A stretch of 63,995 nucleotides of DNA, the filler included, from Basidiobolus ranarum (lineage: Eukaryota), in NCBI GenBank assembly GCA_040143965.1. It is 6 parts of 6 records of this genome, joined end to end, with 100 filler letters (N's around TTAATTAATTAA, not from the genome) between each part and the next. Parts side by side here need not be neighbours in the genome. Positions count along the whole stretch, not along the records: positions 42,963 to 53,584 come from JASJQH010007561.1; 5 more parts are not named here. One strand, given 5' to 3'. Position 1 is the first letter of the stretch. Each line of letters begins with the position of its first letter. The translations under genes and the position numbers were made by a program. The notes beneath the pieces are model-generated. The model worked only from the letters and a program-made list of their open reading frames with translations. It did not search any database and was not told the origin of the DNA. Shown here one piece after another: positions 6,026 through 62,382 of this stretch.

Positions 6026-6600
6026 GCAAACTTACGAGTAAACTGACAATAGAGCCCAAGTCTACATGTAAACTGAAAATAGACCCACATAGAGATTCGA
6101 ACTTATTTTTGCACTCCTCCCCGCTCCTCCCCCGTTAATTTGTGTTTATGTGCATCAGAAATCTATGATGTCAGTATTAATAACCGTACTAGTACTAAAG
6201 CCAATAAAGGACACTGTTGTTGAAGTTACACATGAGAATTTCTTGTGGTTACCACCGAAGCCACATTGTTACACCCATCTCTTGAATAGATTACAATTGG
6301 CGCCTGAGTAACAACACAACGAAGTAAGTTGCTTATCATAGACAATTCCATCTGATATTGTTGACAAAATATTCAAGCAATCTAGGTCAAACGACATGGG
6401 GCAAATAATCAATATACCTTACGTAAATTGTCCGATTACATTAAATACCTCCATGAAAACAAATAACACAATCATCTGCTGCATTGGGAATATTTACCAG
6501 CCAAATATAATAGAAGATGGTTGCATTCCCAGGCTTGCCCGGTTTACCCATCGAATAAATATTCCCCCTTCAAAAAGATCGAACTCAAAATATTCAATTG

Positions 6601-7113
6601 ATGCTTTCAAAATCCCTATTTTCTCTCTTTTCTCTGATCCTATTACAATATGGTAATGCTGAAGTGATCACACCCGGGACTGGAGTACTCTGGAAGGCTG
6701 GTGAAAATGTTACTGTGTCTTGGAAAAATCTTCAAGAGAGCTATGTAGATGTACGTTTAGTCCATGGTGATGCTACTAATCTTCAATTGGCTTTACCAAA
6801 TGCAACTTGTTCGAATCAACCTGGCCCAGAGGGAAGTTGCTACTTTATCCTTCCTTCTCGGATCCCATCTGGTCGAAACTACGCCGTTACCGTCGGGAAG
6901 TTACCAGAAAAATACGTCTATAGCTCTTATTTTACTATCCAAGGAAATGAAACTTTACCTGAGAGTGAAGGCTGTCCCAATTTCGGTGGTTACAAGTGTC
7001 CTAAAGATATGCCTTGTTGCTCCAGTGGTGGATACTGTGGTGCCACTCAGGAATATTGTGGAGTTGGTTGCGTTGCAAAGTTTTCCTTTAATAATCAGTG
7101 TTTATCATACTAA
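6601..7113 (+). CDS. Secreted protein: Kre9/KNH-like N-terminal beta-sandwich plus CBM18 (hevein) chitin-binding domain
   Basis: Signal peptide MLSKSLFSLFSLILLQYGNA; ITPGTGVLWKAGENVTVSW...YSSYFTI pattern; C-terminal CPKDMPCCSSGGYCGATQEYCGVGC. Confidence 0.85.
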   Translation: MLSKSLFSLFSLILLQYGNAEVITPGTGVLWKAGENVTVSWKNLQESYVDVRLVHGDATNLQLALPNATCSNQPGPEGSCYFILPSRIPSGRNYAVTVGKLPEKYVYSSYFTIQGNETLPESEGCPNFGGYKCPKDMPCCSSGGYCGATQEYCGVGCVAKFSFNNQCLSY

Positions 7114-7744: not shown

Positions 7745-8339
7745 GAGTATGGATGACTGCCGGTCGTGGTATTGTGCACGCGGAGATGCCACTAACTAAG
7801 TGTCGAGGCCTTCAGCTACGGGTCAACTTGAGTGCTACTGATAAAATATGTGAGCCACGTTATCAAGAGCTTCTAGATAAGGAAATTCCGAGGATATCAC
7901 CACCGGGAGTCAACACAGTGATCAAAGGGATTCTTTTGGAGTCAGCAGTCCTTTAGTAACCAAGACTCCTACTATGTATCTCGATTTTAAGGTTGAGAAG
8001 AACCGTAAATTTGAGCAAGTTATTCCAGAGAGCTACCAAGGCTTCCTATACATACTGGAAGGTGAGGGTTACTTTGGTTCAAAAAAGACACTGGGGAAAG
8101 CACACTATACCCTGACACTCAGTGAAGAAGGAGACACAGTCGGCATAGAGACGAAGGAGAAGGCGGATCATTTTGTACTCATAGCTGGTGAACCAATCAA
8201 AGAGCCGATTGTTCAACATGGTACGTTTGTCATGAACCATGCAAGTGATATTCAACGTACATTTACTGATTATCATATGAGAATCAATGGCTTCGAGAGA
8301 GCCCATACAGAGCATTCAAAGATTGGTAATCGCCATTAA
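7745..8339 (+). pseudogene. Pirin pseudogene (5'-truncated, frameshifted)
   Basis: WMTAGRGIVHAEMP, GLQLRVNL and FVLIAGEPIKEPIVQHGTFVMN are pirin motifs. Frameshift near 7930, N-terminal half absent, conserved W and P residues substituted. Confidence 0.88.
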
Positions 8340-8569
8340 ATAGATTCTATGATCACAGTATTGCTTTGTACTGTCACTTATTTTAAATTAACCTCACTCA
8401 TCATCTATTCTCACTCGTATCTGTGGCTAATTCTGGAGTATGGCAATAGCACCATTCTTGTTAATAAATCTTGAAATAGCTCGTTTTAAAGAACATGATA
8501 GATTATCCTACCTAACCCTAAAGTGGCTCAGTGTCATGTTTCATGTTCCATGTAGCAGCAATAGCTGAG

Positions 8570-9743: not shown

Positions 9744-10655
9744 TTAGCAAGCGCCAATATCATTCCAGACAGACTGACTGTTACTTCCTGGGGTATCATT
9801 TTGAGTCCACCATTTGGCTTGCCACAAATGTCCCTTGTAGGTAACCTTCTGGGCGCTGTTGTAAGCAGTGGCAGGAACCCATTCGGCAACTCCGTTGCAA
9901 ATACCGGGAACTGAAGTAGGAGTCACGGAAGCAGTACTGGTAGATCCAGTGGCAACGGTGGAAGAAGTCTTGCTAGTTACAGAGGAAGTAGCCTGGGCAG
10001 TGGAGGTGGTTACAGGAGGGATGGATGGTGAAGGGCATCCAGATCCGGTGCAGCGAACACCCTGTAGCACGTTGAGTAACTCATCGTTGGAGTCATGGCT
10101 CATATCCCAGTACATTACACCACGAAGTCCTGCTTGCTTGGTGTAGTCAACCTTGATCTTGAGTGATTGAGGATCATCATAGGAAATGAAACGCTTATCA
10201 CTGGCACGGAACAACCATGGGGTTTGGGTGGTGTTATCCCAGTAACGACTCCAGCCGCTGGCAGGAGTGTTGGGTCCTGATTGAAGAATATCACTACGAA
10301 TGGACTTCCACTTCCAAATACCAGAGTAGAATGTTCCTTCGTTGCAGAAGAAGTTAGGCTCATTAGCATCATTTGAGTCGCCCTTGGGGGTAACACTGTC
10401 CTTGGCGGCATACATATTACCGGGATTAGCATTCATATCCACGGTGGCAGTAAGAGAACGGCCATAGAATGGTAAGCCCATGACCAGTTTGTTGGCAGGC
10501 CACTTGGCACCGAGCCAGTCGTTGATGGATTGACGGAAGGAGTAAGCCTCTCCACCTTTGGCAGCATCATAGTCGAATGGAGCATTAGGGCCAGTGGTGG
10601 CAGACCAGGAGCCCATGATGTCATAAGCCATGACATTGATGAAGTCAAAGTACTG
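9744..10655 (-). CDS. GH18 chitinase with Ser/Thr linker and C-terminal CBM5/12 (ChtBD3); 5' end cut by contig end
   Basis: FDFINVMAYD, KLVMGLPFYGR, ISYDDPQS...GLRGVMYW; C-terminal VTYKGHLWQAKWWTQ. Confidence 0.95.
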   Translation of the reverse strand, partial: QYFDFINVMAYDIMGSWSATTGPNAPFDYDAAKGGEAYSFRQSINDWLGAKWPANKLVMGLPFYGRSLTATVDMNANPGNMYAAKDSVTPKGDSNDANEPNFFCNEGTFYSGIWKWKSIRSDILQSGPNTPASGWSRYWDNTTQTPWLFRASDKRFISYDDPQSLKIKVDYTKQAGLRGVMYWDMSHDSNDELLNVLQGVRCTGSGCPSPSIPPVTTSTAQATSSVTSKTSSTVATGSTSTASVTPTSVPGICNGVAEWVPATAYNSAQKVTYKGHLWQAKWWTQNDTPGSNSQSVWNDIGAC

Positions 10656-10755
10656 NNNNNNNNNNNNNNNNNNNNNNNNNNNNNNNNNNNNNNNNNNNNT
10701 TAATTAATTAANNNNNNNNNNNNNNNNNNNNNNNNNNNNNNNNNNNNNNNNNNNN
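10656..10755. other. Artificial contig linker
   Basis: 44 N + TTAATTAATTAA (stops in all six frames) + 44 N. Confidence 0.98.
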
Positions 10756-16317: not shown

Positions 16318-19300
16318 TCATTCACCAAGATTTTGGTGTTGTACCATAGTAAAATATTTCTTCCTAAGTGACATGAGTTCTTGGTGACTTCCCTGTTCAA
16401 TAATAATTCCTCCTTCAAAAACAAATATACAATCCGCATTTTGAATGGTAGAGAGACGGTGGGCAACCGCGATAGTAGTGCGCCCAGATGCAGCCTAAAG
16501 AATCAACCAAGTTAGAGATGTGCATTCCAAAATCCCTCTGATCAACATTTGTACCTTATTTAAAGCACTTTGTACTAGCTTCTCACTCTGAGAATCGAGG
16601 GCTGATGTTGCCTCATCTAGCAATAGAATCTAATTTGCGTGTTAGTCAAATATTATCGATGATACCAAACAATCAAGATGAGAATACCTTAGGATCTCGA
16701 ATCAACGCTCTAGCGATCGCTATACGCTGTCTTTGCCCTCCGCTGAGTTGTGATCCCTTGGTTCCACACTCTGTATCGTATCCTTTTGGTAAAGATACAA
16801 TGTAGTCATGAATGTTCGCCTCCTTGCAGACCCTCTCTATGTCTTCTTGTGTCACGTCGTCGCGATCAGTACCGAGTAAAACATTGAATCGTATGCTACC
16901 TTGATATAGCACAGGCTCTTGACTCACTAAGGCGATACGGCTTCGATGTGTACGAATATCCAGTGTACGTATGTCACGGTCATCAATCATCACTTGTCCG
17001 TTTAGTGGGTCATAAAACCTGTCAGGTGTACGAACTTTGTTAGAGAAATTCTAGATCACAGTGATTCCATGAGAAGCTATACCTTTCGATTAAAGCGATG
17101 GCTGTGCTTTTTCCACACCCACTCTCCCCTACAAATGCACAGAATTGGCCCGGCTTAATCTAGAAATTACCGTGGGTGAGTGGACCATTGGAGAAAAATT
17201 TGATCATACTGTACAAACCATTAGATTGAGACCTTGCAAAATAGGAACCTCGGGACGAGATGGATATCTAAAATGAATATCCTTCAATTGAATACAGCCT
17301 TCAGTTTCAATGGGTCCAGTGATTAGGTCCTTTTGCTGATCTATCTTGGGTTTTTGATCGTGAAGATGAAAAATATTGCTAGCAGCAATCTTGGCTTTAG
17401 TCAAATCCGGGGCTAGAGAAAACATCTGGCCTGAGGCTTGTGCACTGAAAAGAAGGGCAGGTAGAACAATGAAGAATTGGGTAGATGTGTATTCTCCTTT
17501 ACTGATCAGTTGAGATCCCCACCTAATGTGTAAAAAATCTTCAGTAACTACCTTCGATTGATGTTTCTTCAATCGGACCTACCAATATGCCAACGCGTAA
17601 ATGAGATAGGATATACTGTATCCAAGGGCAAGCCAAAAATTCCCTGTGATGATGGACCGTAGACTATCACGATAGGGCCCCTCTAAGCTCTCATGATATA
17701 ATCGACATACATCATTCTCTCGTGAAAGGGCAACAACAGTCTGGATAGCACCTATCGCCTCACTCGCTAAAGCGGCTGATTTAACATACGCTGTTTGGTG
17801 CCGTTGCTAGAAAGTGGACACACTTCGATTAGTAAGGAAGCCCGGGATCTGGTTCTGATTTGCAACACTTACATGAAATAAAGCCAAGATTCGAACACGC
17901 AGAAAGCAAGCAACCAGCATCACTGGGACAGCTGCTAATACAACTATCGCAATTTTCCATGCTACAACGTGAGCCAAGGTGATACCAGCAATCAAATTAG
18001 TTACAATTGAAAAAATGGTGCCAATGACTACACCAGTAAGGCCACCCATATAGTTCGCATCGGCATTGATCATAGAGATCAAGGATGCGGTGGAATGAGA
18101 CTCATCATCAAACCACGACATGTCTTGACACACTATAGTTCTATATACGATGTGGTTAACAAAATCACTGCTGAAACATCCTGACATAAATAAGAAAGTA
18201 CCTAAATGATATACTACGAATTCGCCAAAGCAGCCTTTCCGAAACCCAGCCAAATACGGATCCATTAATAGAGTAAGCAAAGAATACAATTACAGCGATC
18301 ATGAAAAACCCTAATCATTGATCGGATTAATACAATTTCAAGGAAATCTACCGTAACTGAACTTACAGAAGCTGTATACATCTACGTCGGCTCGAAGTTT
18401 AGTAGGGTCATCTTTCATACTGAGTGCCTCAAGCATATGTGCAAATAAGACTGCTTCCACCGAGTAGACTCCTCCAATAATGACAGAAGCTAATTCATGT
18501 TTTGATTAGCAACAGATATTGAAATATCACAATTCTCATTATTTACTTATAATTCCGGCTAGGATATACAGAACATCTGGTCTACTAAGGGCAGCAATTC
18601 GTTTCATAAGAGCTGAGGTACCCGATTTTTTCTGCTGTGCCTCTTTCTCTGGGGCATCGACAATCAGTGGTAACGAAATAGCATTATCAAAAGCTGGAGA
18701 TTTTTCGGACATCGTCTGTTGCTGAGATTTATTCGTGCGGTCTAACTCTAATTCATCTACTAGACTTTGAGAAAGCATGAGCTCATTGTCTTTCATACTC
18801 GACTTTTCTTCATCAGCTGTTTCGTAGGAGAGGCGTTGTGTTGCCACCAATTGATAATATGCTAATTTACGTTCAATTAGTTCATCGTGCGTTCCCTGCT
18901 CGATAACTTTACCTTCAGCCCTGTATAGCAAGAATAAAACGGTTAGAATTACTTTGTACAAATCATTCGCATATCCCAACTTCAAACGCATAGATACTTA
19001 CATGACTACGATATTATCAGCATTCTTTATAGTTGCGAGGCGGTGTGCAATAATGATAGTTGTTCTATCTTTAGTTGCATGCTCAAGAGCATCTTGAATA
19101 AGACGCTCGCTGTGGGTATCAAGTGCCGAAGTAGCCTTCAGATCTTAGGTTAGCAAAGGGCACATTTGATGAAAGTACTTTGATAGGGTTTATATAGTAC
19201 TATACCTCATCTAAAAGTAGTATTTTGGGGTTCGCCACAATGGCTCGAGCTAGAGCTATCCGCTGCTTTTGACCGCCAGAGAGTAAAAGACCTCCTTCTC

Positions 19301-21218
19301 CTACAATAGTATCGTATCCCATTGGAAGTTTAGAGACGAAATTATGTGCGTTTGCCTGTCGAGCGGCTTCAACACAAAGTTCCTGAATTTTCTCTTGGGA
19401 CTCATTTAGAGAATTGTTATTTAACAACCCATGAGCAATATTATTCATTATTGAGGTGTTGAAAAGCGCAGGAGTTTGCATGACCAAGCTCATCTGGCTA
19501 CGTAGCCATTGAATATTTAAATCTTTAATGTTGGTACCGTCAAGAAATATTTCACCATCGACAGGATCGTAGAAGCGCTCAAGAAGACTCACTAAATCGA
19601 TATATTTAATCAACGTGGACCATAAAATATACACATTAGAGAATACGTAACACTTACCAATTGTCGATTTACCAGATCCAGAGACACCTACAATTGCTGT
19701 AGTTTTCCCGCTAGGTATCTTCAGGTCGATGCCTTTTAGCACCTTAGTATCTGGACGACTAGGATAAACAAAGAAAACCTTCCGGAATTCCAGAGATCCC
19801 TCACAATGGGCAAGTTTCTTTCCTTCTTTAGAAGTTACATCGATTGGTGAAGAGCGGTCAATGATTTGAAACAGCTTCTGACCAGCCCCAGACGCCAAGG
19901 AGAAGGTCTGAAGGAATGGCGAAAATTGACCGATGACAAAGGAACCTAACAAAAAAACTTAGTCCGAGATATAGAATGCAATTAAAGTATACATAATATA
20001 CGCACTATCCAAGACAAGAAAAATCACAGTATAAACTGTGCCAGCTCCTTCCAGTGAACTGGATGCAATGAGTCTAGACCCCTGCCAGAATGCCAAAGCA
20101 TTAGCGGAATAAGCTACAAAGAATATTCCTCCCAGCATCAATGCACCAGCTATAGCTTTGAATAATCCTTGACGTTGAGCAAGTAACAAGTACCGATCAT
20201 ATAACGCAGCAAGTCGATCCTGAGAATTGAATGCCTGAGCAACTCGGACGTTGGCAAATACCTCCTCAGCCAAGGTACTAGCTTTTGAATAGTGATCCGA
20301 GACGCGCACAGTATACTTCGAAATGATATATGAACCTCCAGTCATAACAATAACAAATACTGGAACGATAGAAAACAAAATCCCCGTTAAAGTAGCATTT
20401 TTGATGAAACCCACAGCGAATGCAGCTAAGAAATACGATATCGATTGAATGCAAATCCCCACTTTCTCCGATGTACCATTTTGAATGGTCTGCGTATCAC
20501 CAGTGATGCGATTAGATACCTATAACAAGGAATCAATATGGCATCGTTCTGAAAAATAACACAAATTAATACCAACCTCTCCCGCACCAAGTTTATTAAA
20601 ATATGCAATATTTTGACGCAGTACTGCCCTAAGATAATTCTCTCGGATTTGACGAGTTAACCGTTCTCCTATTAAACTCCAACATACTGTATATACATAT
20701 GTCAACAAAAAATATCCAATAGCGACATAGATGAGTTTCAAGACTTTGTCATTGATAACCTCTTTGAACATCAGAGCCTGCTCTGCTGATAGAGGTGCTG
20801 AAGACTCAGAAAACTGCTGCGAGAAGTTGTTGATGAGGTCTCCAAACAGTATTCCGATCAGTGGAAGAGGAATACCAGCACCAAGAGCGCAAACGATACC
20901 CACTACGAGGAGAAATTTGTCGAAACTCGTTGAATACCGATATAAACTGAGGTATCCCGTCTTGGGAGAAACTTCGCTATCGTCTCTCGTGCCTTCACTT
21001 TTCTCATCCAGCATGCGTCGTTGTTGCTCCTCAAGAACTGACACCGTCTCCACAGTTACCTTAAGCATCGATTCTGTGTGGTTATCAGATGATCCAGGTT
21101 GCTCATGACTTGGAGTACCTTGCTCTTTGGCGAATACCTCGCCTTCATCCCGAGTATTCGATACCTCATTCGTCGAATGGTTATCGTCGGACTGCATGTG
21201 CATAGCCGTGGTCGGCAT
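16318..21218 (-). CDS. Full-length ABCB/MDR (P-glycoprotein-like) transporter, multi-exon
   Basis: Two TMD-NBD halves: [23 protein letters not shown] and [23 protein letters not shown]; many short GT-AG introns; stop at 16318-16320. Confidence 0.96.
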
Positions 21219-21404
21219 TGTACAGTTGATATTTCGCTTTGCAAGATGTCAAAGTTTAAAATAGTTTGCGGTCAAGATTAAATCTAAAATCTCCACTTAT
21301 TTGATTTAAGCAGCGATTGGTCCTATTTTAAGACGGGGGATCTAAGGCGATTGATGGGTTTTGGGGGGATGGGGAGTCAAGCAGGTTAATCTGATTCCGG
21401 TGTT

Positions 21405-21504
21405 NNNNNNNNNNNNNNNNNNNNNNNNNNNNNNNNNNNNNNNNNNNNTTAATTAATTAANNNNNNNNNNNNNNNNNNNNNNNNNNNNNNNNNNNNNNNN
21501 NNNN
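21405..21504. other. Artificial contig linker
   Basis: N44-TTAATTAATTAA-N44. Confidence 0.98.
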
Positions 21505-32136: not shown

Positions 32137-32236
32137 NNNNNNNNNNNNNNNNNNNNNNNNNNNNNNNNNNNNNNNNNNNNTTAATTAATTAANNNNNNNN
32201 NNNNNNNNNNNNNNNNNNNNNNNNNNNNNNNNNNNN
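32137..32236. other. Artificial contig linker
   Basis: N44-TTAATTAATTAA-N44. Confidence 0.98.
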
Positions 32237-42862: not shown

Positions 42863-42962
42863 NNNNNNNNNNNNNNNNNNNNNNNNNNNNNNNNNNNNNN
42901 NNNNNNTTAATTAATTAANNNNNNNNNNNNNNNNNNNNNNNNNNNNNNNNNNNNNNNNNNNN
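42863..42962. other. Artificial contig linker
   Basis: N44-TTAATTAATTAA-N44. Confidence 0.98.
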
Positions 42963-43940
42963 ATACCGAGATATTCCATATTATCGGAGAATAATGCCCT
43001 CTCTAGCTCTTGCAAGATTCCTACGGTCTAAACATCTTACCTGAGCTCTCTATTTTTATAAATGACGGAGCGATACATAATAAATCTTTCAATTAGAATC
43101 CTTGTTGGACAATGTATATGACGGGCTGAATGAAGGCTAGAGCAGAAAGCTGTGTCTGCTTACCAATGGTCGACATACAACCCACCTAATTTATCAAGCG
43201 ATTAACCGAATGTTCTCCGGCAGATCGTGGCATGCGTTACCACAAAAACGTGGTAACATGGAATCGAGCTATATTTCTAATCTCCGTTTAGATCACCGAG
43301 CTTACAATATTCACGCTTTTCCTGTAATAGGATAGATTAGTAAGGGTTAGAGTGGCGAGGGAGGGAGATGGTACGGCACGTCCCTCTACTCAAACATATC
43401 CATAGTGGTTATTGCGGATGGATCCAGGTTATACTAGATCATTGAAGGGCTACATGCGATCTCGTTAAATCGTGGGTAGAATCCAGTATGATCCCAGCTG
43501 TGATCATGTAGTGGAAGATTGGTTGGGTTGCAACCAATTTAAACTTGGGTCATGCTAGCGTTGATGAGTGGTGTTTCAAAGCACCTCTTTCCTGTCCGAT
43601 TGTTATTGATACTCATTTTAAACGGGGTTTGACTGTTGATGACTTATGTAGCGTCCATTGTGCACCATTCGATTTGTATACCCTTCATGAGCAATGGGCA
43701 CTGGAATTAATACGCCAATGGCGAATTCTTGAAATCATTTCCGCATTTAGCATCTGATTGGGCACGCATGTAAGCACCAAAAGCTGATATTAATCAGCAG
43801 AAAAATATCGAGAAAATTCAAATACTTTTCTGCAGTATACTGATCGTCCCAATATGACTCATCCCGAATGATTCCATATCCAGGTGGCTCACATATATAA
43901 GGAATGTGAGGAATAGGCGGTAGTTGTATTAACACCCACC

Positions 43941-44420
43941 ATGCGACATCTCTTCCTCTTGTCGTTTACACTTGCTCAATCCTTATCAATTTCGTGCCAA
44001 TCCTCCTTAGAAGCCAATGCGAAGTTGGAAGCTTCCGCTACTAAGAACGGATTCACCTATATTCTTGGTGGATTACTGTCAGTAGCAGTGGTAATCTTGG
44101 CGGCAATTTATTTCGCATATCGAGGATGGAAAAACTATTTAAACCGCAAGGAGTCTCAGCGTAGAATTCGACTTGCTCTTAATGACCATAAACTGTATCC
44201 ATCAACAAACAACACGGAGCTGCCGCCCTATTCATTTCGGGCATCTCAGGTAACTCTACCGGGTGTAATGGTACAAGCGATCTCCGAGAAAACCCGGACG
44301 AGATTCATGACCAGCTCAACATGCGCTCTCGAAGATCAGATTGAAGTGATCATTGATGGCTCATATTGCCAACAACAGCGATCCATAATATCACCACCCC
44401 CACCTGTATATAATGCCTGA
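43941..44420 (+). CDS. Single-pass type I membrane protein with C-terminal PPxY; paralog of 46207-46671
   Basis: Signal-like N-terminus, TM YILGGLLSVAVVILAAIYFAY, basic juxtamembrane, LPPY and PPPPVY. Confidence 0.78.
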   Translation: MRHLFLLSFTLAQSLSISCQSSLEANAKLEASATKNGFTYILGGLLSVAVVILAAIYFAYRGWKNYLNRKESQRRIRLALNDHKLYPSTNNTELPPYSFRASQVTLPGVMVQAISEKTRTRFMTSSTCALEDQIEVIIDGSYCQQQRSIISPPPPVYNA

Positions 44421-46206
44421 TCCGTCTCCCTGTTAGATATAGATGTGCCAATCCACTTACAAATAGCAGTGTTTACCTAAGCTTCTCACAGATCACCACC
44501 GTCCCTTGTATATTTATTTGGATGGCTATTATAAATTAAATAGTATCGGAGAATTTATTACCATTAATATTGTATACATGTGGCTAGTTTGGGATCGATT
44601 GATGCCTTTGCATTGACTATGCATTGTCATCGTTTAAGTCAAGCTCAGTAGTTTTCCAAGCATAAGAGCAAATGGAGAGGCTAGTATTTTGGCGTTGCTT
44701 ACATCGTCAAGATTCCCAACACTGAGTGCTATGAAGTATACTCGGTATACATCATTTAAAGCATTGAAACATTGCCGGTCAATCATCTTATAGGTCCGAA
44801 AGCGTGCTGCTTCCAGCGGATTCTTGCTCATTGAATTCGTTTATTGCAATCGGCCGCGTAATATCAGCGCCGACTTTCATGAAAGTGCATGTTACGGAGA
44901 ATGATTATAGCAGTTATGATGTCAACGGCTTACATATGTTTCAAAGTAGAAAAGTCATTATTTGGTTTGCTAGTGCTGTATCATATGCATATAACCTAGT
45001 TGGGAGGAGCTCAAGGACTGTCATCATAGCAGTGTATTGCTGGCATCTCTTTGGACTACACTTTCGTCATAGCCTCTCGATATTTTTCTGAATCAACCCT
45101 CCGGTGGTTTGAGGAAGTTTGACTCGATAATACTTTGTCAGCTTTATGACGAAGTTCGATACTCCATGATTTGAATCGGAAAAGAAAGCTTAACCAAGTT
45201 GACAAATCCATTGCAGATCGAAAATGCTATAACGAATCCCTCCATACCTTATACGAATGATGATCCCCGATCTCAACTAAAGATCCGATCATGGATCGTG
45301 CGCCATTAGAATACGATTTTCCGGGATAGATTATCTTCGTATAAGGGCTTAAGGTGGCCCCCTAATGACATTCACCTGGCCTTAGAGCGAACAGAAATAT
45401 CTGGAAATTCTGTCCTAAGTAAAGCACCGGTGTCCCTACTTAAAAGCATCCTTCCAGTTGGGTTTTGTTTTGCCTCAACTCAACCAAGTTTATATATGAT
45501 TAACTCAGTCTCTGGTTAATAACATGGTGAGCAAGAAACGTCTCCTACAATTAGGGAGAGTTCGAGTGGCGCCGTTCCTCTCGTCTCACCCTTTTTTCTG
45601 AATCTCACCCCTTCTTTTAATATTCATTTGATGCATTTGATCTTCATCTAAGGATATTCATTTCATATTCATTGAAACTAATCTATTCTATATGGAAATC
45701 TACCATTTCAAATCAACTCGAACGCTAATTTTCCTTTTATGCTTTCTACGAGGGGAAGGTGGAAACTAATCATCTTTGCCTTGCCTTTTGTGAGCAACCA
45801 CTGCCTGAGCGATCGTGATGTCACGTAATTTCATATCCCATTTTGCAAGCTCAATACTATGCCGTGTATCCCCCACCTGTAATGCCATATAACATCCTAC
45901 AAATGGTAAGGACCGTGGATTCAATTCAACTGGTTCATTCTTCAAAAGATTGGTAGAGGTGGTAGGTTTACTTACAAGAAATATACCAAGGAAATCCCAT
46001 TACATTGAGAGCGTATGTCACATAGATGCCGAATAATTATATATCTACATAGAACGAAGGTTCAACATTCGTTTGCATAGTAGAGAAGTCTAATGCAACT
46101 TCATGCGGAGCTATTCTTAAGGCGATACCCACACAAGGCGTCAGGAGGTAAAGGTGGTAAGAATGAGGGCACAATCCAGCTAGGATGAATGCATCGCGAA
46201 TTTCCT

Positions 46207-46671
46207 CTACGTACTTACCCTCTGTGTAGAATTAGTATAGGAGGGTGGTAATGCTACTACTTCTGAGTTGTCTAGATTTCTTGAAGTGGATGGCCGACTA
46301 CTGTCGTCTATCTCAATCGCTACTTGGTGGTTTTTAGAAGAACGTTTCCACGCTTTCTCAGTAATTTCGGTGACAGTGGTAAGTGGTAAGGTCAGTTGGG
46401 AGCTTTTCTTCAAGTATCTTGGTGGATTTTCCTCATCACGAGTGGCATAAATACTTCCATTGTAAATATGTCCATCTAATGCTATCTTAACCCTTCGCTG
46501 GATCTCTCTATGAAGGCGAAACTTTTTCCACCAGAAATATGCTGCAATGAATAGGGTCAAACAGGCCAGAGTAGCTCCAGCTATAACAAAGAATAAATAA
46601 TCATTGGTAGAGTTGGAGGTTGAGTTCTTCATTAGGTCAGAAGTACTAGTCAAGTTGGATACTCTATTCAT
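46207..46671 (-). CDS. Single-pass membrane protein with PPRY/PPSY motifs; paralog of 43941-44420
   Basis: First ATG at 46671; N-glycosylation sequons upstream of TM FFVIAGATLACLTLFIAAYFWW; shares QRR.(R/K).AL..H, SQ.TLP and I(S/T)EK. Confidence 0.78.
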   Translation of the reverse strand: MNRVSNLTSTSDLMKNSTSNSTNDYLFFVIAGATLACLTLFIAAYFWWKKFRLHREIQRRVKIALDGHIYNGSIYATRDEENPPRYLKKSSQLTLPLTTVTEITEKAWKRSSKNHQVAIEIDDSSRPSTSRNLDNSEVVALPPSYTNSTQRVST

Positions 46672-48952
46672 CGTAGCCAAAACTATTCCTCTCAACAGCA
46701 ATTGGTAAAACAATGAAGACCAGTGAAAGACTAAAGGTAAATTGGGTATTTTTTATTTCGAGTGGGTTCAAGGGCTCCTAGATATATATCTTTTCATCCA
46801 GGCTAGAGGAATGCTAATATGCGGGGAGGGGTAAAGATTCGATCCAGAGAAATGACTGATCAACTAATCATTTCTAATGGCTACATCTCCATAAATTCTT
46901 CAGTCTTTTGATGTGGTCTGCAAGCTGTTTATCAAATACATTCGGACGAGTTGGATCCGTTCATCCAGCCTAATAAATGAAGCGTTCTAAATACTCATCA
47001 TATGTAGAGGATTTGGGTAATTAAAGTATTCAACCAAAACATAATTAAATTATATTAAAATCAAAGACCTCATATACCTGGATCCCTAAAATGAGCCCGT
47101 ATGAGAGGTGTTCGAGGATCCTCATTCGATATGTCTAAACCCACAACTCACTAGCTTTCCATCCGGCTATCCAAGTAACATCACGGTATATGAGCACTTT
47201 GTGACGTCTTTGCTAGCACATCCGTCCCATATCCATATCCTAGCAGACGCATCTTGTTGGCACGAGATACACCAAATGCTTATTACGTCCTAAAAGAACA
47301 CAAGCCCTGGTTTCTTGGTTAGATACAATTTGGGCTAATTCCAGAGAGTAATATGTCCATACCTACATCCGATGCTCGGAGAATGATAGGCTCCCTTTCC
47401 CCTTTTGTACAGTAAATCCCATTAGGAGAACTGATAATGGCTACTAGAGAAACTAATACATGAACCGGTTTCAAAGATGCCTTTGCTGCTGGTGTATTTT
47501 TGGTCCCTCGTCCTCATTGTGGCTCATACTTCTTCTGTGAGGAATTCCTTGTACAGTCTGATGAGGAGATGATTGAGTGTTGACCTTAAAAACCATGCAC
47601 TAACCTCGAATTTCGTTCCTCAATGATGGGAAATTGTTTTCCAGATTGTGCCTTTATATTAAACACCCATTCATTCTCAGTTAAATCATTACCCTTAGAC
47701 CTTCCAACTTACCCAATACACTCCAACATTAGTAATACTAAAATGGGGCATTGTACAAAAGAGAATGGCTTAATAAATCCCAATTATTTAGAACCGTTCT
47801 GGCTGAGTTTTGTAGAATCAACGCTATCACCTGGCCCCTCTTTGTTTCTGACCGATAACTGGTGGAGCAGTCTGTCTTGTGATTTTTCATTCAATCATTC
47901 TCCTGGTGGATTGAAGCGCTCTTGAAGTGTTGGAAATGAAGCGGTTCACGGTTCACATGTAAGCCATAGATCCGCCGAGTTTAGCTTGAATTGTTTTCAT
48001 GCAGGAGTGAGAAAACTAACTACCCAAGATGGTTCTAAAATGAAGGTCATCATACATAAGTGCTAAGAATCATGTATCCAAAATGACTAACCGCTCAAAT
48101 AGATTCCCTTTCCGCAGTTTTAGTGCGTGACGAAAATAGAATTCCAAATATTCCGAGAGGTACCTAATTATAGACTGGACTTTAGGCATCGTACATCATC
48201 AGCTGCCAGTGCTGCCTCCAATCAGCCCTCACTTGTGCTCCGTTTTGTTTCTGACAATTGCACCCGAAAATTCACCCAGGAGGAATGCCGGGTTGAAATA
48301 TCCCTGCTATTGAATACGACGTGGCGTAATGAACAATGGGACACTCCGAGATCGCTACAAACGGCGATCTGTTGTCAACACTCCAGTGCAGCTTCATTGA
48401 TATTCAGGCCATCATTGCTGTCACGCTTGATACAATATGGTACACAATCGGCTGAATCAACCATGCACTTAAATGCTATGTTTACCAAATGGGTAGAAAG
48501 TTGCTCATGGGCAAGCTTTTTGCCGAAGAACATTCATCGGGTTGTGCAGGGAAAGAAGTATCTTTGTCCTCTCTAGCCTTAAACCAGCTAACAAATATGC
48601 ATAAAATGTGCCAATATGCATTTGGAAAGAATAATATCAAGGTCTCAGCTCAGTGCAGGTTGTAACTCCTAGTGCCGAGGTTTCTCCATTCTGTAACTAA
48701 ATTCATTGCTTAGTGCTTGGCTTGAATTACACAGATGCTAGATACAAAAAATACGGGATTTATATTGGAGTATGATGATTTCGAGTCCCTACATTCTCAA
48801 CATTGGCACGTGATACAGTTGACGAAGCACCTATCAATCTCAACCGTATTCATATTTTTACCGCAGAATATTGGAAACCTTCGACACAAACTGTATTTTG
48901 TTATGGAGGGGGCACGACATAATCAAGTAGAGGACAATCTGACACCAAGTGT

Positions 48953-49632
48953 GTGGGATATGAAGAGAATACCGAGAGTCCTTCACTTAATACTCTAGAT
49001 TTGAAGTATTACGAAATACCAGTCACCTTTGTTCGAGACAAAGGCCAGGAGACACGTCAAACATCAGAAAAAAACAATAATCCTGAAGATGTTAGTAGAT
49101 TCTACTCCGATCTGCTGGGACTTTCTTCAACTGTCGACACCTTTCCAGAGAAGAAATATACTTGGTGTGAAGTCTGTGCCACAAACATTCAATCCGAACG
49201 GTATGAAGATCATTTACGTGGCACAAGTCACTTGGTTGCTAAGCCTACGTTTGCTCCTACTCCTGATCCAATCTATTTAAATGAAAAAAATCTCGGTTAT
49301 AAAATGTTGAAAGATTCTGGTTGGGAGTATGAAGATGGTCTTGGTAAAGATAGATCCGGCCGTAGACACCCCATACCTACCAAGTTAAAGCTAGATAAAC
49401 TTGGGCTAGGACATAAATACAAAAAGAAATACGTACACGAGCAGCAGGATATTCGTGAAGCAGAACGGAGAAAGGTAATTTATTTCATGAATCTATTACT
49501 TCCCAATTAAGATCTAATTCTGATCTCTTATTTTAGAAGCACGATAGAAGAAAAACTAGGAAAGAAATCGTGGAGGAACATGAACGAGAGCGACGGAAGC
49601 GTATGGCCATGATAGCCTATATGAATCGTTAG
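48953..49632 (+). CDS. G-patch protein with U1-like zinc finger (GPANK1-like C-terminal module); 5' end uncertain
   Basis: WCEVC...HLRGTSH zinc finger; NLGYKMLKDSGWEYEDGLGKDRSGRRHPI...LGLG G-patch; intron ~49475-49537. Confidence 0.85.
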
Positions 49633-51278
49633 AACGATGCTTCGTTAATACATTTCATAATTCTGTCTATCATTGTAAACTCAAGACATGTATAATCAAT
49701 ATCATTTTTGTATACCTCTGATTTTCTCCTTCAATTCTTTCATCGAATTGGATCTATGTTGGGCTCTACAGCACTGCCAGTACCAACATCTATACCGTCT
49801 AGCAAGGTTTTTCCTTGATCCTAATCTAGGCAGTTTTGTTAAGATATACGAATGTAGAGCAGGTCACAGATCCATAATCATTTCCTATACATTTGAAAAG
49901 CCAGAAGATGCTATTAGTGAGTAGAGCTATGGATTGCGTTTCATAGTGTTCTTCTGCCTTTTCTTAATAATTTACCTCCATGTCACTTTGCTACAATCCA
50001 CTCTATGAAACCATCCTATCATGTCTTTGTCCTTCCATCCTAGTTCCCCTGCACTTGGTATTTACTTCAAAGGAGCTATTCACTGTTGGACTACTGCTTA
50101 TTTCAGTACAGGATCAAGAATTAGATAACTCAAGTAGGAGACTAGTCAGCTTGTATGGGCTGCTTTGATTAAGTCTGTTAGTGATTTAAATAAAGTATTT
50201 TCATACATTCAAGGCTTGGTGTAGTTGAGAGTGCTGGATATACTAGGCTTTTGGTAGAAACTAGGAACAAATATTGAATTCTGAAATTTGTTCAGACAAA
50301 CATTAAATAAAAAGGCTCAGCTAACTTGTTTACATTTCTGATCAAAATGAGGTAGTTAGCTCCAAGAAATCTGATTACTTTTTGAAACCACTAACACCAA
50401 TGATTGGCTAGGATTGATAATTAAACTTATTTTGTCTATCAACTAATATCTTGGGACTGAAGGATCATTTGATTGGTTTCAGATACATAGTTAGAAGTGG
50501 ACTTGGCTGATATAGTAATAAGCTTTTAACATTAGAAGGGACCAGTAGTGAATAGTAAACACACAATATTAGCTCTGTCAAATTATTGTGCAACTTTCAA
50601 GAGTTCATAAACAAGTGTTACCAGTTATTTTAGGTCTCAATACCAGAATATGATATTGGCTAAGTATCTATTTATATTATTAGAAGAATTGGATAACAAA
50701 CTACTCCTTTTTTCACTTGATTCCTAAATGTAAAAGTAACACCTATATAGCAGACTTTTTAACCAATATTTGCAAAATTAAAGATCAGTAAAGTGGAAAA
50801 AAACTTTGCTTTAGTTTGCATGAAGTATTTAGGGAGAGTGTTGCACAAAATTAGAACTAGAGGCATATTTTGCAACTTCCCTTTGTTATTTCACAAGAAA
50901 CGTAGAAATATTGAGAAATAAATCTTAAAGCTGTCCCAAAGACTATAAACATTACACCCATTTTTTTCATGACCTTCCACAATATATTCTACTACTTTGA
51001 TTTACAAAGATTGATAATTAGTGTAAGTACACTCCTTTAACTCAATAAAGTAGCAAGTAAAGAGATTTTGTAATAATAATCACTAAATCACTTTGAAGTC
51101 AAAATTCAACTTACAAAGAATACTTACAGAAGAATCATCATGCCGAAAGCATATTTTATTAGGGTATCACTTAACAAGCTGGTGGGAAAGCAGCAGCCAT
51201 GAAGCTCTGGTTTCAAGCTGAAATGTTTAGCATCCCTTTGAGCAGGTGCTTCAATGAAGTTTTCAACCCCAAGTAGAC

Positions 51279-51702
51279 CTATTTAGATGAACATACAGAA
51301 AGTGCCGGACAAACTGCCAGAGGGTCTGTGCCATTGATTAACAGTTGTACTATTGAGTCAGCATATTTATACACAAAGTTATTGCATTGCTTGGTAACAC
51401 TCTGCGGGAGATAATTGCAAACTCCATGAACAGCTTGCTGGATTTCTTCCTTGGTCGCACCATTTTTCAGCATTTCATCGATCTGTGTCATTACGAATTC
51501 ACAGATAACACAGTCTGGTGAATTGCCAGTTATCCCAGCTTTGATTGGAGACTTTCCGGAGTTAATACTGAGAGCTCCACTAACTTTCAATAAAACATAA
51601 TCAATAGGTAGATTGTGGAAAAAAGCAAAAATTACCATTTATACCGTTGCTGGAGAGAAATAATGCACTAATGGAGACAATAAGAGGTAAACTGAAACGC
51701 AT
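51279..51702 (-). CDS. Secreted single-domain saposin-like protein (SapB), 123 aa
   Basis: Exon 1 51702-51636 (MRFSLPLIVSISALFLSSNGIN), GT-AG intron 51635-51584, exon 2 with six-Cys pattern CVIC...VC.YLP....QC..FV..Y...VC....VC; TATAAATA at 51740-51747. Confidence 0.9.
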
Positions 51703-53584
51703 GATTTTGTCGTGGTGAACTCTTCTCCTTCATCTAGGGTATTTATATTTTTTCGCGATGGGATGGTGTGAAGAGTACACAACGACAGCAGAGTGTGGAA
51801 TCGGTCACAGCTTTTGCCAATTGATGATGCTCGATTGCTTATACACACGATGGAATTCAATGGTTATTAGTATGCTTGTACTACAAGTTGATTTATTAAA
51901 ATTGATTTATTAAATCAGAGGTCAGCCTTCATGTTTCTTGGTGGAACTCATTACGTAATACATGTATCCGACTAAACAGAAAGCCCCATGCATTGAGTAA
52001 GTATTTTACATATCTGAATTTGGATGGCTATATAATATGAATTCAGTGAGGATCTATGTTGATCCACCCTAGTTTAGCGTATCCAACGGTTTGTAAAACT
52101 GACATAGTATCAGAAGGTAAGGCCTAGAGACAGGTATTCTTTGGACACCCTTGATCATGCCAAATCTAGCCCAGCACGTATTATGCTCTTACTCAGTCAA
52201 CTAAGAGATTAACGGATTAGTATCTGATTAAAACATCATTCCCTACATGATGGGTGATTTTACAACTGCGACAATAAGTTACCAATACGCATGTTGTTTG
52301 AGGAGTAATATTGTATACATAGACAATCAGCTTGCTGTAGTCACAAGATGATATAACATTTACCTTTGTCTTTCCAACCATTTGCCCCATCGTTTTTTGT
52401 GCTAGTCGGGGTGTGCTACGGGGAGGGACAATTGCGTAAGAGTGATATGCTAGAGTAGTATGAAATTGGTTTTGTCGGCAATATGATGTCCAATATTGCA
52501 ACTGTCTATGATGTTGTGGAGACAAACAAGTGAGCATCAGAGTCCACAAAGAAGTCAATGGGGATTTAAATGCCCTTACTTGGCACTTCCCAGAGAAAAG
52601 TATTACTCCTGTTTATCCAGAGTAAGTACTTCTCTTAGTGCGATAAATGCTGTTCGAGTAATATCATAGCAATTGGACGGATATCGAATTCCTGGTGCCG
52701 CCCAAACTGGCCGATGATAGCTCCAATGATTAGAGCATCATTACTGAACCTAATACCGTTTGACTACATTTGTGCACCTATTCTCATTCTAAACTAAGCC
52801 AAGTATTTAGTTATTAAATGTCTGATTCTCAGGTTTGATGACATTTAGCTCGTTTACTGGTGACTATACAACTGTAAAAAAAATCAAGGTACAACCAGTC
52901 TAGCAAATACGGTTGGCACATGGTCTTGGATTCAGCTAATGGCCACCATGCCCCAACTGTCCCCCCATATGCCTATTATTACTATTTATCTCTTTGAAAT
53001 TATCAACAAGAGGCATCAGCAGCCACTACATACGTTATCATGCCTATCGTCATGCCACCAGGAGTATGAATCAATAACGTTATGTTACGCCACTATTCCA
53101 GTGAGTATGGTTAGTCAGAAAGGTTGATATAGAACCATTCTCATATGTTGTACAAATATTCTAATGTGGTGACTGGGTGCACTACATGGATACAGCTAAT
53201 TGTGAGCAAATAGCAATCTCAAGGTGTTAAAATTTTGTTTATTTAGAGTCCAGTCATTTATTTCAGAACTATTTGAAAGTTACAGATGAATATAGGAAAG
53301 TATCCTTCATGCAACCTTGAATATTATGCTTAACTTAAATGTGAGAACCTTGCTGCTGTCAAAGCATTTTGGAAACTGTAGGATAAGGGTTAGGTTTTTT
53401 GTAACATTATTGGGCATCACTTAGGGGGGATGAAAAGCACCAGATGGTGTAGACTTTATTTAGCTTCAACATGAATCTAAACAAAGTGACAATCAAGACA
53501 TCAATCTTTTAAGATATTGTGACAATACTGGATCATATCCATACTTAACCTGATGACCAATGTAATCAAGCTCAGAGGATGTAA

Positions 53585-53684
53585 NNNNNNNNNNNNNNNN
53601 NNNNNNNNNNNNNNNNNNNNNNNNNNNNTTAATTAATTAANNNNNNNNNNNNNNNNNNNNNNNNNNNNNNNNNNNNNNNNNNNN
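53585..53684. other. Artificial contig linker
   Basis: N44-TTAATTAATTAA-N44. Confidence 0.98.
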
Positions 53685-53882: not shown

Positions 53883-55697
53883 TTACGCAGAAGGGTCAAC
53901 ATCAACCAACTTAGTGATCTTGCCAATAGCGATGGTCTTTCCTTCATCACGAAGGGTGAAACGTCCAAGTTGAGGATAATCATCGAATACCTCCACACAA
54001 ACGGGTACTGAGGTTTCAATTCTAGCGATCAATTTTTGTCCCTTCTTAACGAATTGAGGAGGACGCTTGGATTTTCTGCCTGTCTTTTTATCAATCAAAT
54101 GAAGTAAAGCAGAGAGAGATGCCTCTTCTACTGAGGCATGTACGTGAAGTACAGCATTGTATCCAGCGCAAATGATACTCTTATGTTCCAAAATGGCCAA
54201 TTGTGCTTCGAATGCGGAGACACAGTGTACTGGCTTCTTAGGATCGCACATGACAAATCCAACACTGATTTCTTCTTCTTCAACACCTCTCAATCTAATA
54301 CGAACGTTATCTCCGCAAATAGCCAACTCAACCTCATCCTCCTCCGAGTAGATGGCGGAGATTTCGGCGGACTTCTTGTTGGGCATCAATAAGATAGATT
54401 GTCCCTTACGAATCTTACCAGACTCGATCTTGCCAACAACGATGGTACCCATATCCTTGTACTTCTCAGTGATGGGCATCATAAGTGGGGAGTTCACTTT
54501 TCTTTCAATGGTTTGCATGTTGTCCAACAACTCCAAAAGAGATGGACCGCTATACCAGGGGCATACATCAGGAGAAGCACGGTCCTTGATGTTGGCTCCG
54601 GTGTAACCAGAGACAGGCATGAAATCAAGATCAGTCTTGGGGTTGTAACCACTTTGTTTCAAGAAGGGTGTGAGTTTGGTGACGCATTCATCATATCTTT
54701 CCTTGGACCAGGCAACAGTAGGATCATCCATCTTGTTGATAACGACGATCAAACGTCTAACTCCGGAAGTCTTGGCAAGAACAGCGTGCTCACGAGTTTG
54801 ACCACCTCTTTCGAAACCAGTTTCGAATTCTCCCTTACGAGCTGAGATAACAAGAACACCAAGATCAGCTTGGGAGGCACCACCAATCATACTAGGTACG
54901 AAATTTTTATGCCCAGGTGCATCAAGAATGGTGTATCTACGTTTATCAGTTTCGATGAAAGCACGACCACATTCCACAGTTTTACCCTTATTACGCTCTT
55001 CAGCGTTAGTATCAAGGGCCCAAGACAAATACCAAGATTCTCTGTTTTGTTCTTTAGCCTCTCTTTCGTATTTCTCCATGGTTCTTTTGTCAACCATACC
55101 GGTTAAGAAGAGGATGTTACCTCCCATAGTAGACTTACCAGCATCAACGTGACCGATGAAGATGACGTTAACGTGTTCCTTGAAATGTTCGTCTAATAAA
55201 AGCTCATCTTCTTTGTCTTGTTCAGCTATTTCAGCAACCTCTGGGGCTTTAGGCTTGGGTGCTTCAACTTTAGGTTTGGGAGCTTCAGCCTTTGGTGGTT
55301 CTGGTTTAGCTTCTTCTACCTTAGGTGCCTCTACTTTAGGAGCTTCAGGAGCGACCTGTGGCTCAGATGAGCCAAGTGAAAGACTAACTGCCTTAGCAGG
55401 AGCCTCAGATTCAGGCTTGGAACCGCCGATGGACAAGCTAACAGCCTTGGCAGGAGCCTCAGACTCAGGCTTGGAACCACCAATGGACAAGCTAACAGCC
55501 TTGGCAGGGGCCTCAGACTCAGGCTTGGAGCCACCAATGGACAAACTTACAGCCTTGGCAGGAGCACTTGGCTTTGGCATCCAAGTAGGGACAAATTCCC
55601 TAGCCTTAGGATTGGGCTTAAACTCAGAAGCACCCGCATTAAGCGTGAGCTTAGAGAAGCTTGAGGGGACGTCATTTCCGTTGTTGTTTCCGCTCAT
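53883..55697 (-). CDS. SUP35: Translation termination factor eRF3, intronless
   Basis: GHVDAGKST, RESWYLSWALD, DAPGH, NKMD, GRFTLRDEGKTIAIGK; N-terminal PAM2-like LNAGASEFKPNPKAREFVP. Confidence 0.97.
   Translation of the reverse strand: MSGNNNGNDVPSSFSKLTLNAGASEFKPNPKAREFVPTWMPKPSAPAKAVSLSIGGSKPESEAPAKAVSLSIGGSKPESEAPAKAVSLSIGGSKPESEAPAKAVSLSLGSSEPQVAPEAPKVEAPKVEEAKPEPPKAEAPKPKVEAPKPKAPEVAEIAEQDKEDELLLDEHFKEHVNVIFIGHVDAGKSTMGGNILFLTGMVDKRTMEKYEREAKEQNRESWYLSWALDTNAEERNKGKTVECGRAFIETDKRRYTILDAPGHKNFVPSMIGGASQADLGVLVISARKGEFETGFERGGQTREHAVLAKTSGVRRLIVVINKMDDPTVAWSKERYDECVTKLTPFLKQSGYNPKTDLDFMPVSGYTGANIKDRASPDVCPWYSGPSLLELLDNMQTIERKVNSPLMMPITEKYKDMGTIVVGKIESGKIRKGQSILLMPNKKSAEISAIYSEEDEVELAICGDNVRIRLRGVEEEEISVGFVMCDPKKPVHCVSAFEAQLAILEHKSIICAGYNAVLHVHASVEEASLSALLHLIDKKTGRKSKRPPQFVKKGQKLIARIETSVPVCVEVFDDYPQLGRFTLRDEGKTIAIGKITKLVDVDPSA
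55375..55566 (-). repeat. 54-nt coding tandem repeat (about 3.5 units) in the eRF3 N-terminus
   Basis: Encodes APAKAVSLSIGGSKPESE x3 plus APAKAVSLSLGS; the three full units differ only at synonymous sites. Confidence 0.95.
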
Positions 55698-56070
55698 CTC
55701 AGATCAACAGCGTAAGTAAAAAAATACTCTAACTGGGAACAAGGAAAAGTGAATGTGAAAAAATGCTAACTTCATACTCATAAAATCGGATCCGAACCAA
55801 ATGAAAAAAAATCTGGTGAGTGCACATCATGGGTGAATCAATTTTTATTTTAACTAAATACTTGATAGAGAAAAAAGGGGAGAGGGAGAGGACAGGTTAA
55901 CTATTTCAAAACATTGATATCATCACTCTAAGTTTTCATTTACTCTTATCAATTCAATTGTTATTATGCTTCGCTTGATTATTATTATTCATAGTAATCG
56001 CAGCTTGCCTATTTTTGACCTAGCAAGCCAATCATCATTAAGTTACAAAGCTCAGCCTCTATAATTCAAC

Positions 56071-59127: not shown

Positions 59128-62382
<3,255 letters not shown>

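Follow-up and report, generated by a model that had tools for sequence, protein, structure and literature searches.

How does a fungal contig come to carry a stand-alone gene for a putatively secreted saposin whose domain resembles a repeat of animal prosaposin? The question is raised by a gene of Basidiobolus ranarum within a 63,995-nt stretch of DNA (the window), which an initial annotation had described as encoding a domain of metazoan, especially insect, type, perhaps recruited by the fungus from an animal. Our best reading is that a single prosaposin repeat was probably transferred from an insect to the fungus, where it would now serve as a secreted acidic saposin.

The saposin gene is real. 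It consists of a signal-peptide-like exon, a short GT-AG intron and a second exon with a single six-Cys SapB domain. Its features are given below, the last two having been recognised by sequence only.

51279..51702, minus strand: saposin coding sequence, with the ATG at 51702 and the stop codon TAA at 51281-51279; identical to NCBI 'hypothetical protein K7432_010220 [Basidiobolus ranarum]'
51636..51702, minus strand: exon 1, a signal-peptide-like N-terminus of 19-22 codons; the end is at 51636 in the model of the initial annotation and at 51645 in the NCBI model
51584..51644, minus strand: intron, phase 1, with the AG at 51585-51584 and the donor GT at 51644 or 51635
51279..51583, minus strand: exon 2, with a linker of about 20 residues, the SapB domain in full and the stop codon (translation P0001, 100 aa)
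51285..51518, minus strand: SapB domain, residues 22-99 of P0001, with six Cys, four predicted helices and a pI of 4.5
51740..51747, minus strand: TATAAATA, a motif resembling a TATA box, with the ATG 38 nt downstream
51155..51160, minus strand: AATAAA, a possible polyadenylation signal about 120 nt past the stop codon

The motif previously read as a TATA box and the separate N-terminal exon are both present: the motif reads TATAAATA from 51747 to 51740, and the 22 codons from the ATG at 51702 onwards specify a hydrophobic N-terminus, in which Met-Arg precedes 14 hydrophobic residues and then small ones; we judged it by eye to be a signal peptide. The intron had been proposed to span 52 nt and the spliced protein to have 123 residues. 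The acceptor end at 51584 agrees with that proposal, but the donor is ambiguous. The NCBI model uses GTATAA at 51644, which gives a 61-nt intron and a protein of 120 aa (P0003), whereas GTAATT at 51635 gives the 52-nt intron and the 123-aa protein. Both donors preserve the frame, their products differ by three codons, and the exon 2 translation is 100% identical to the NCBI model. GTAATT also opens intron 2 of a G-patch gene on the same contig, and the two introns of that gene, 50 and 62 nt long by protein mapping, are indeed of the same size class as the saposin intron, as had been suggested. A scan for sigma-70 promoters and terminators gave no excess over shuffled sequence, although the model is bacterial and irrelevant to a eukaryote.

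The exon 2 protein scored above the Pfam cut-offs for both SapB_1 (6.4e-14, 52.1 bits; cut-off 25.2) and SapB_2 (8.5e-9, 35.9 bits; cut-off 21), and a PDB sequence search retrieved human saposins C, D and A, for which E ranged from 1e-12 to 1e-8 (about 1e-12 for C and D). All six Cys of the domain aligned with those of human saposins C and D, in agreement with the earlier description of a single intact six-Cys SapB domain. The Pfam search of the same protein returned no SapA match, only the one SapB; prosaposin, by contrast, has several tandem SapB repeats flanked by SapA domains. An AlphaFold2 single-sequence model has helices at residues 22-39, 44-57, 60-82 and 87-93, with pLDDT values of 86-93 across the domain. 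The closest solved fold to this model was human saposin C (2gtg; TM 0.87, rmsd 1.6 Å), with a Foldseek E value of 1.1e-3, just over the 0.001 line. In the ESM Atlas, the saposin fell among generic SapB clusters, every one of them below 0.9. The mature product would be an acidic (pI 4.5) four-helix bundle of about 80 residues, held together by three predicted disulfides.

The fungal protein is thus similar to human saposins A, C and D in sequence (E about 1e-12 at best), in fold (TM 0.87 to 2gtg) and in the acidic pI of its domain, but human saposins are excised from a four-repeat precursor in lysosomes, whereas the fungal protein has a single repeat directly behind a signal-peptide-like N-terminus. 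NK-lysin, granulysin, amoebapore A and caenopore-5 (1nkl, 1of9, 1l9l, 2js9) are of the same fold and size, and are secreted or granule proteins. However, these free single-domain SAPLIPs matched the fungal domain far more weakly (E 0.002-0.17; 0.04-0.17 for the NK-lysin type). NK-lysin and granulysin are strongly cationic, and this strong positive charge is absent from the fungal domain, which has 4 K+R against 8 D+E.

A phmmer search of 1.84 billion representative proteins gave 2202 matches, and the best 150 of these 2202 by summed score were all multi-repeat proteins; in such a ranking, relatives with a single domain, those of fungi among them, would stand lower than the best 150. We re-scored the matches domain by domain, using 1283 domains from the best 150 of the 2202 proteins and from 8 others. 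Within this set (best 150 of 2202, plus 8), the top single domain belonged to the mayfly Ephemera danica (KAF4528847, residues 428-507; 110.7 bits); by BLASTP, the fungal domain and this repeat are 62% identical over 81 aa (116 bits, E 4e-36). Second among the 1283 domains was the last detected repeat of the prosaposin of the damselfly Ischnura elegans (XP_046391934; 91.4 bits, 58%), and third was a repeat of the beetle Aromia moschata (83.3 bits, 43%). For the 147 domains with at least 58 bits, identity to the fungal domain was 64% for the mayfly, 58% for the damselfly and no more than 48% for all others among the matches listed, mollusc, flatworm and cnidarian repeats among these matches reaching 45-48%. 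The resemblance to metazoan, and especially insect, prosaposin noted at the outset is therefore borne out: 62-64% identity to the mayfly repeat and 58% to that of the damselfly extend across the whole domain, the similarity spanning about residues 17-98 of P0001, and the rest of the matches listed reach 48% at most.

The similarity is specific to one repeat. The mayfly repeat is the fourth of five SapB repeats in its protein, whose remaining four are just 26-35% identical to the fungal domain by BLASTP; the damselfly repeat is the sixth of six detected. The C-terminal-proximal insect repeat and the fungal domain share the six Cys, the arrangement of helices and motifs of insect type around Cys 3 and Cys 4. 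The proteins around them differ, in that the insect prosaposins are 650-788 aa long with five or six detected SapB repeats, whereas the fungal protein has one repeat and its own signal-peptide-like N-terminus. The N-x-T sequon conserved in the insect repeat is gone from the fungal domain, which has a new NGT at residue 83.

A transfer could be genuine and yet have come from a non-insect animal or another eukaryote, the link to the mayfly being an accident of sampling. Taxon labels were available for just 22 match proteins, 93 of the 147 high-scoring domains have no taxon label, and the mollusc, flatworm and cnidarian repeats at 45-48% show that animals outside the insects come within range. 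However, all 93 domains without a taxon label are at or below 46.2% identity, and the top two among the matches listed are both palaeopteran. The residues that distinguish insects from other animals concur. We called a column discriminating when one residue was common to half or more of the insects and another to half or more of the other animals; at the 11 such columns, the fungal domain has the insect state at six, the other state at one and neither at four. Two residues are common to the fungal domain and Ephemera only, among the 40 sequences compared. We regard a non-insect donor as quite improbable, and insect origin as the better reading of the transfer.

We built a maximum-likelihood tree from 78 columns and 40 of 148 rows, restricted to labelled taxa and to at most three repeats per protein; native fungal SapB domains are absent from this set. 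The fungal domain grouped with the Ephemera repeat (support 96/91) inside a clade of 12 insect rows and an isopod repeat (82/91). The careful 40-row tree supersedes a quick 98-row version, in which the query was likewise sister to Ephemera (SH-aLRT 87) within an insect clade (80). A phylogeny had been named as a check on the proposed animal origin, and its outcome favours that origin, albeit with a qualification. For an AU test, we constrained the 12 insect rows and Idotea r5 to group without the query; the best tree under this constraint had an lnL 5.13 lower, with p-AU = 0.363. The test does not reject a position for the fungal domain just outside the insects, with which the tree is compatible, and nesting inside the insects falls short of statistical proof on 78 columns. 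The terminal branches are very unequal, at 0.72 (long) for the fungal domain and 0.02 (very short) for Ephemera.

These last results also fit vertical inheritance of the gene, as an old fungal (opisthokont) saposin that retains an ancestral sequence, with the mayfly and damselfly repeats as the least changed animal copies. The AU test allows the query to lie outside the insect clade, and the terminal branch of 0.02 suggests that the Ephemera repeat is near the ancestral insect state. The codon use of the gene is ordinary. SapB is moreover native in early-diverging fungi, one instance being acid sphingomyelinases with an N-terminal SapB (PMC13161914). The same enzymes bear on the claim that fungal SapB is mostly seen fused to enzymes: they are an instance of such a fusion, and the claim has its backing from this one source. 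Vertical inheritance, however, fits poorly with the pattern of identities. In the pairwise matrix, the mayfly repeat is nearer to the fungal protein (64%) than to the repeats of nine other insects (42-60%) or to those of molluscs, flatworms, cnidarians and brachiopods (45-54%), and the likeness is to one mayfly repeat, the others being at 26-35%. Retention of an ancestral sequence would require an 80-residue domain that evolves fast to have stood almost still for about a billion years, and it leaves both the insect state at six of 11 discriminating columns, against one for the other state, and the 96/91 grouping with Ephemera to be accounted for. The word-index and metagenome searches described below, insensitive as they are, gave no close fungal relative. 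We consider vertical inheritance unlikely.

An alternative of a different kind is that the gene does not belong to the fungus, either because insect or other animal contamination was joined to a Basidiobolus fragment in assembly or because the whole contig is foreign. The layout of the window is relevant here.

42963..53584: contig of the saposin gene, 10,622 bp and N-free, with artificial spacers at 42863-42962 and 53585-53684
48903..49632, plus strand: G-patch gene K7432_010219, with three exons and introns at 48949-48998 and 49475-49536; Pfam G-patch 2e-12; 100% identical to the NCBI protein (P0185)
10656-10755, 21405-21504, 32137-32236, 42863-42962 and 53585-53684: artificial spacers, each of 44 N, TTAATTAATTAA and 44 N, making five joins between six pieces of about 10.6 kb

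Since the spacers join six separate contigs, arguments from linkage across them are void. We accordingly rejected the eRF3, Kre9, GH16, GH18, P450, ABC and PABA-synthase genes as evidence of fungal linkage, all of them being on other contigs beyond N spacers. A 53-nt 'palindrome' near the gene was likewise rejected as a genomic element, as it is the artificial spacer itself.

The G-patch gene, at 48903-49632, is on the same N-free piece as the saposin gene, in line with the initial annotation, which had placed a fungal-style G-patch gene on the same contig. It has an ortholog in B. meristosporus CBS 931.73 (P0186) with 75% identity, and the 1.6 kb from its end to the saposin gene contains no N. 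ESM Atlas clusters for the G-patch ORF (0.91 and 0.90; mostly Mucoromycota and Ascomycota) were a lead only and are superseded by the B. meristosporus ortholog. Because the saposin gene is only 1.6 kb from a gene with this ortholog, it is not loose insect contamination. The composition of the contig is consistent with this. Its GC content is 39.1%, and the other five contigs have 37.7-40.2%; in tetranucleotide usage it correlates with those five at 0.67-0.81, as compared with 0.66-0.83 among the five themselves; and composition along the contig is even, except for AT-richer spacers.

The case for an artefact is that one 10.6-kb contig, from one fragmented assembly, is the sole source of the gene, and that its closest relatives among the matches listed are all animals. 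Against it, the contig is free of N, contains a gene with a 75% match in B. meristosporus, and is even in composition and similar to the other contigs. Furthermore, the gene is unlike an insect prosaposin, having one repeat, its own signal-peptide exon, an intron of 52 or 61 nt and no trace of flanking repeats, and at 64% it equals no sequenced animal's gene among the matches listed. We conclude that, as far as one assembly shows, the contig is Basidiobolus, and we hold an assembly artefact to be very improbable.

For both GC3 (0.36) and a codon-usage score, the saposin gene itself falls among the values spanned by the other genes; a score as low occurred in 7.5% of size-matched reference windows. 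The absence of a foreign composition signature is neutral as to origin, being compatible with a native gene and with an old transfer alike. A search for repeats around the gene gave nothing beyond short chance matches, and no transposon-like flanks.

Searches of protein and metagenome sequences gave few further relatives. A word-index search for relatives of 55-175 aa returned one candidate, which was the protein itself; this search is insensitive, as it missed the 62%-identical mayfly protein. The corresponding search for longer proteins returned two bee prosaposins among 52 candidates and again missed the mayfly protein. In metagenome contigs, 599 pattern matches included no close locus and three relatives, at 45, 40 and 22% identity, all of which look like multi-repeat animal-type genes. 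A literature search of titles and abstracts found no published report of a saposin transferred into a fungus and no link between Basidiobolus and saposins, and the supplements of three papers on early-diverging fungi had no entries for SapB, PF05184, PF03489 or saposin.

One of the metagenome relatives, at 5163-16358 of contig L001 (GC 28%), is a prosaposin-type gene with several exons and several repeats. The repeat at 8283-8510 is 45% identical to the fungal domain and forms an uninterrupted stretch of 76 aa with the insect-type motif around the third Cys, whereas neighbouring repeats are split by introns, the next one into two. That the matching repeat is uninterrupted while the next is split makes capture of a single exon plausible.

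Transfer of one repeat from an insect to the fungus could have proceeded as follows. The donor would have been the C-terminal-proximal SapB repeat of a prosaposin from a mayfly- or damselfly-like (palaeopteran) insect. This repeat would have been captured into the Basidiobolus lineage as an exon-sized piece, and then joined, through a short intron of fungal type, to an exon that supplied a signal peptide. Just one repeat would have crossed over: no other SapB-like stretch is present in the 63,995-nt window or on the contig, and a comparison of the whole mayfly and damselfly prosaposins with the contig recovered this domain alone, all other matches having E > 0.3. An identity of 64% indicates that the sampled mayfly is not the donor, and the long query branch points to an event long past, to rapid evolution of the copy or to a donor outside the sample. 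The direction and mode of transfer are inferred; what we observed is how the gene is built, its SapB domain, its linkage to the G-patch gene and its specific similarity to one insect repeat. The proposal that the fungus recruited an animal-derived domain gains from the agreement of the insect-specific similarity, the tree, the signature columns and the G-patch linkage, with the AU result (p 0.363) as its counterweight.

Contact between the two organisms is plausible, since capilloconidia of Basidiobolus adhere to the exoskeletons of small insects (PMC7466969). A more detailed scenario, which we put forward tentatively and think rather doubtful as a whole, is that B. ranarum captured an exon-sized prosaposin repeat after its split from B. 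meristosporus, from a mayfly-like aquatic insect of the kind that carries its spores and is eaten by its frog hosts; that it added a signal-peptide exon; and that it now secretes the repeat as a free-standing saposin, which would mobilise animal sphingolipids or attack membranes, either in the gut or in the remains of insects.

Lysosomal saposins act on membranes in an open form and present the lipids that they extract to hydrolases. By analogy, the fungal saposin, opening at a membrane, would bind lipids, chiefly sphingolipids, or draw them out, and pass them to hydrolases or loosen the bilayer. It would in this way help the fungus to exploit or attack the membranes of animals or microbes in the contents of the gut, in dung or in insect remains. 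The acidic pI of 4.5 fits better with a lipid binder of the lysosomal saposin type than with a cationic peptide of the NK-lysin type. Provided that the gene is expressed, we judge the chances of a role as lipid solubiliser or hydrolase helper to be evenly balanced; a membrane-damaging antimicrobial and an internal vacuolar role each seem rather unlikely, and the lack of any function more unlikely still.

Few well-supported gene transfers from animals to fungi are known. The textbook one is Mr-NPC2a of Metarhizium robertsii, a lipid carrier reported to have been transferred from insect to fungus (PMC3983072). Mr-NPC2a and the Basidiobolus saposin are both small proteins of lipid-binding type, of insect origin (proposed, in the case of the saposin), in fungi that meet insects. 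They differ in fold, since Mr-NPC2a has the NPC2/ML domain, which is unrelated to the saposin fold. They differ also in host and evidence: Mr-NPC2a belongs to an ascomycete insect pathogen and its role was established by knock-out, whereas the saposin belongs to an early-diverging fungus of gut and dung and is known from sequence alone.

If the transfer is true, it would be a second independent case after Mr-NPC2a and would point to repeated gain of the host's lipid-handling proteins by fungi associated with animals; the recipient here is an early-diverging one, which inhabits amphibian guts and is carried by insects. Secondary-metabolite genes of Basidiobolus have been linked to horizontal gene transfer (PMC7466969); an animal source would then be added to the transfers already described for the genus. 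One module of a multi-repeat lysosomal precursor would also have been turned into a stand-alone protein secreted outside the cell. That K7432_010220 is annotated merely as 'hypothetical' or 'Saposin B-type domain-containing' calls for caution with automated annotation.

Several other features of the window were noted. On the saposin contig, the ORFs at 43917-44417 (plus strand) and 46210-46752 (minus strand) are divergent paralogs, 27% identical over 153 aa (E 2e-13); they have no Pfam match, and each has one hydrophobic segment that appears by eye to be membrane-spanning. On the other contigs, 53886-55703 (minus strand) encodes an intronless eRF3/Sup35-type GTPase, with an N-terminus of three near-perfect tandem copies and a fourth, divergent copy of an 18-residue unit rich in Ala, Ser, Pro and Lys, followed by repeats rich in Pro, Lys, Ala and Glu. 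Glutamine amidotransferase and chorismate-binding domains in adjoining ORFs at 59619-61651 (plus strand) suggest a fused gene of PABA- or anthranilate-synthase type, a pathway that animals are not known to have. An ORF at 6559-7110 (plus strand) has a Kre9/KNH-like domain and a chitin-binding domain, and a GH18 chitinase with a CBM5/12 module at 9747-10655 (minus strand) is cut by the contig end. Finally, an ABC transporter is present as a chain of ORFs at 16676-21248 (minus strand), of which those at 19203-19958, 19962-20519 and 20523-21248 are in one frame with single stop codons between them, consistent with either short in-frame introns or a damaged gene.
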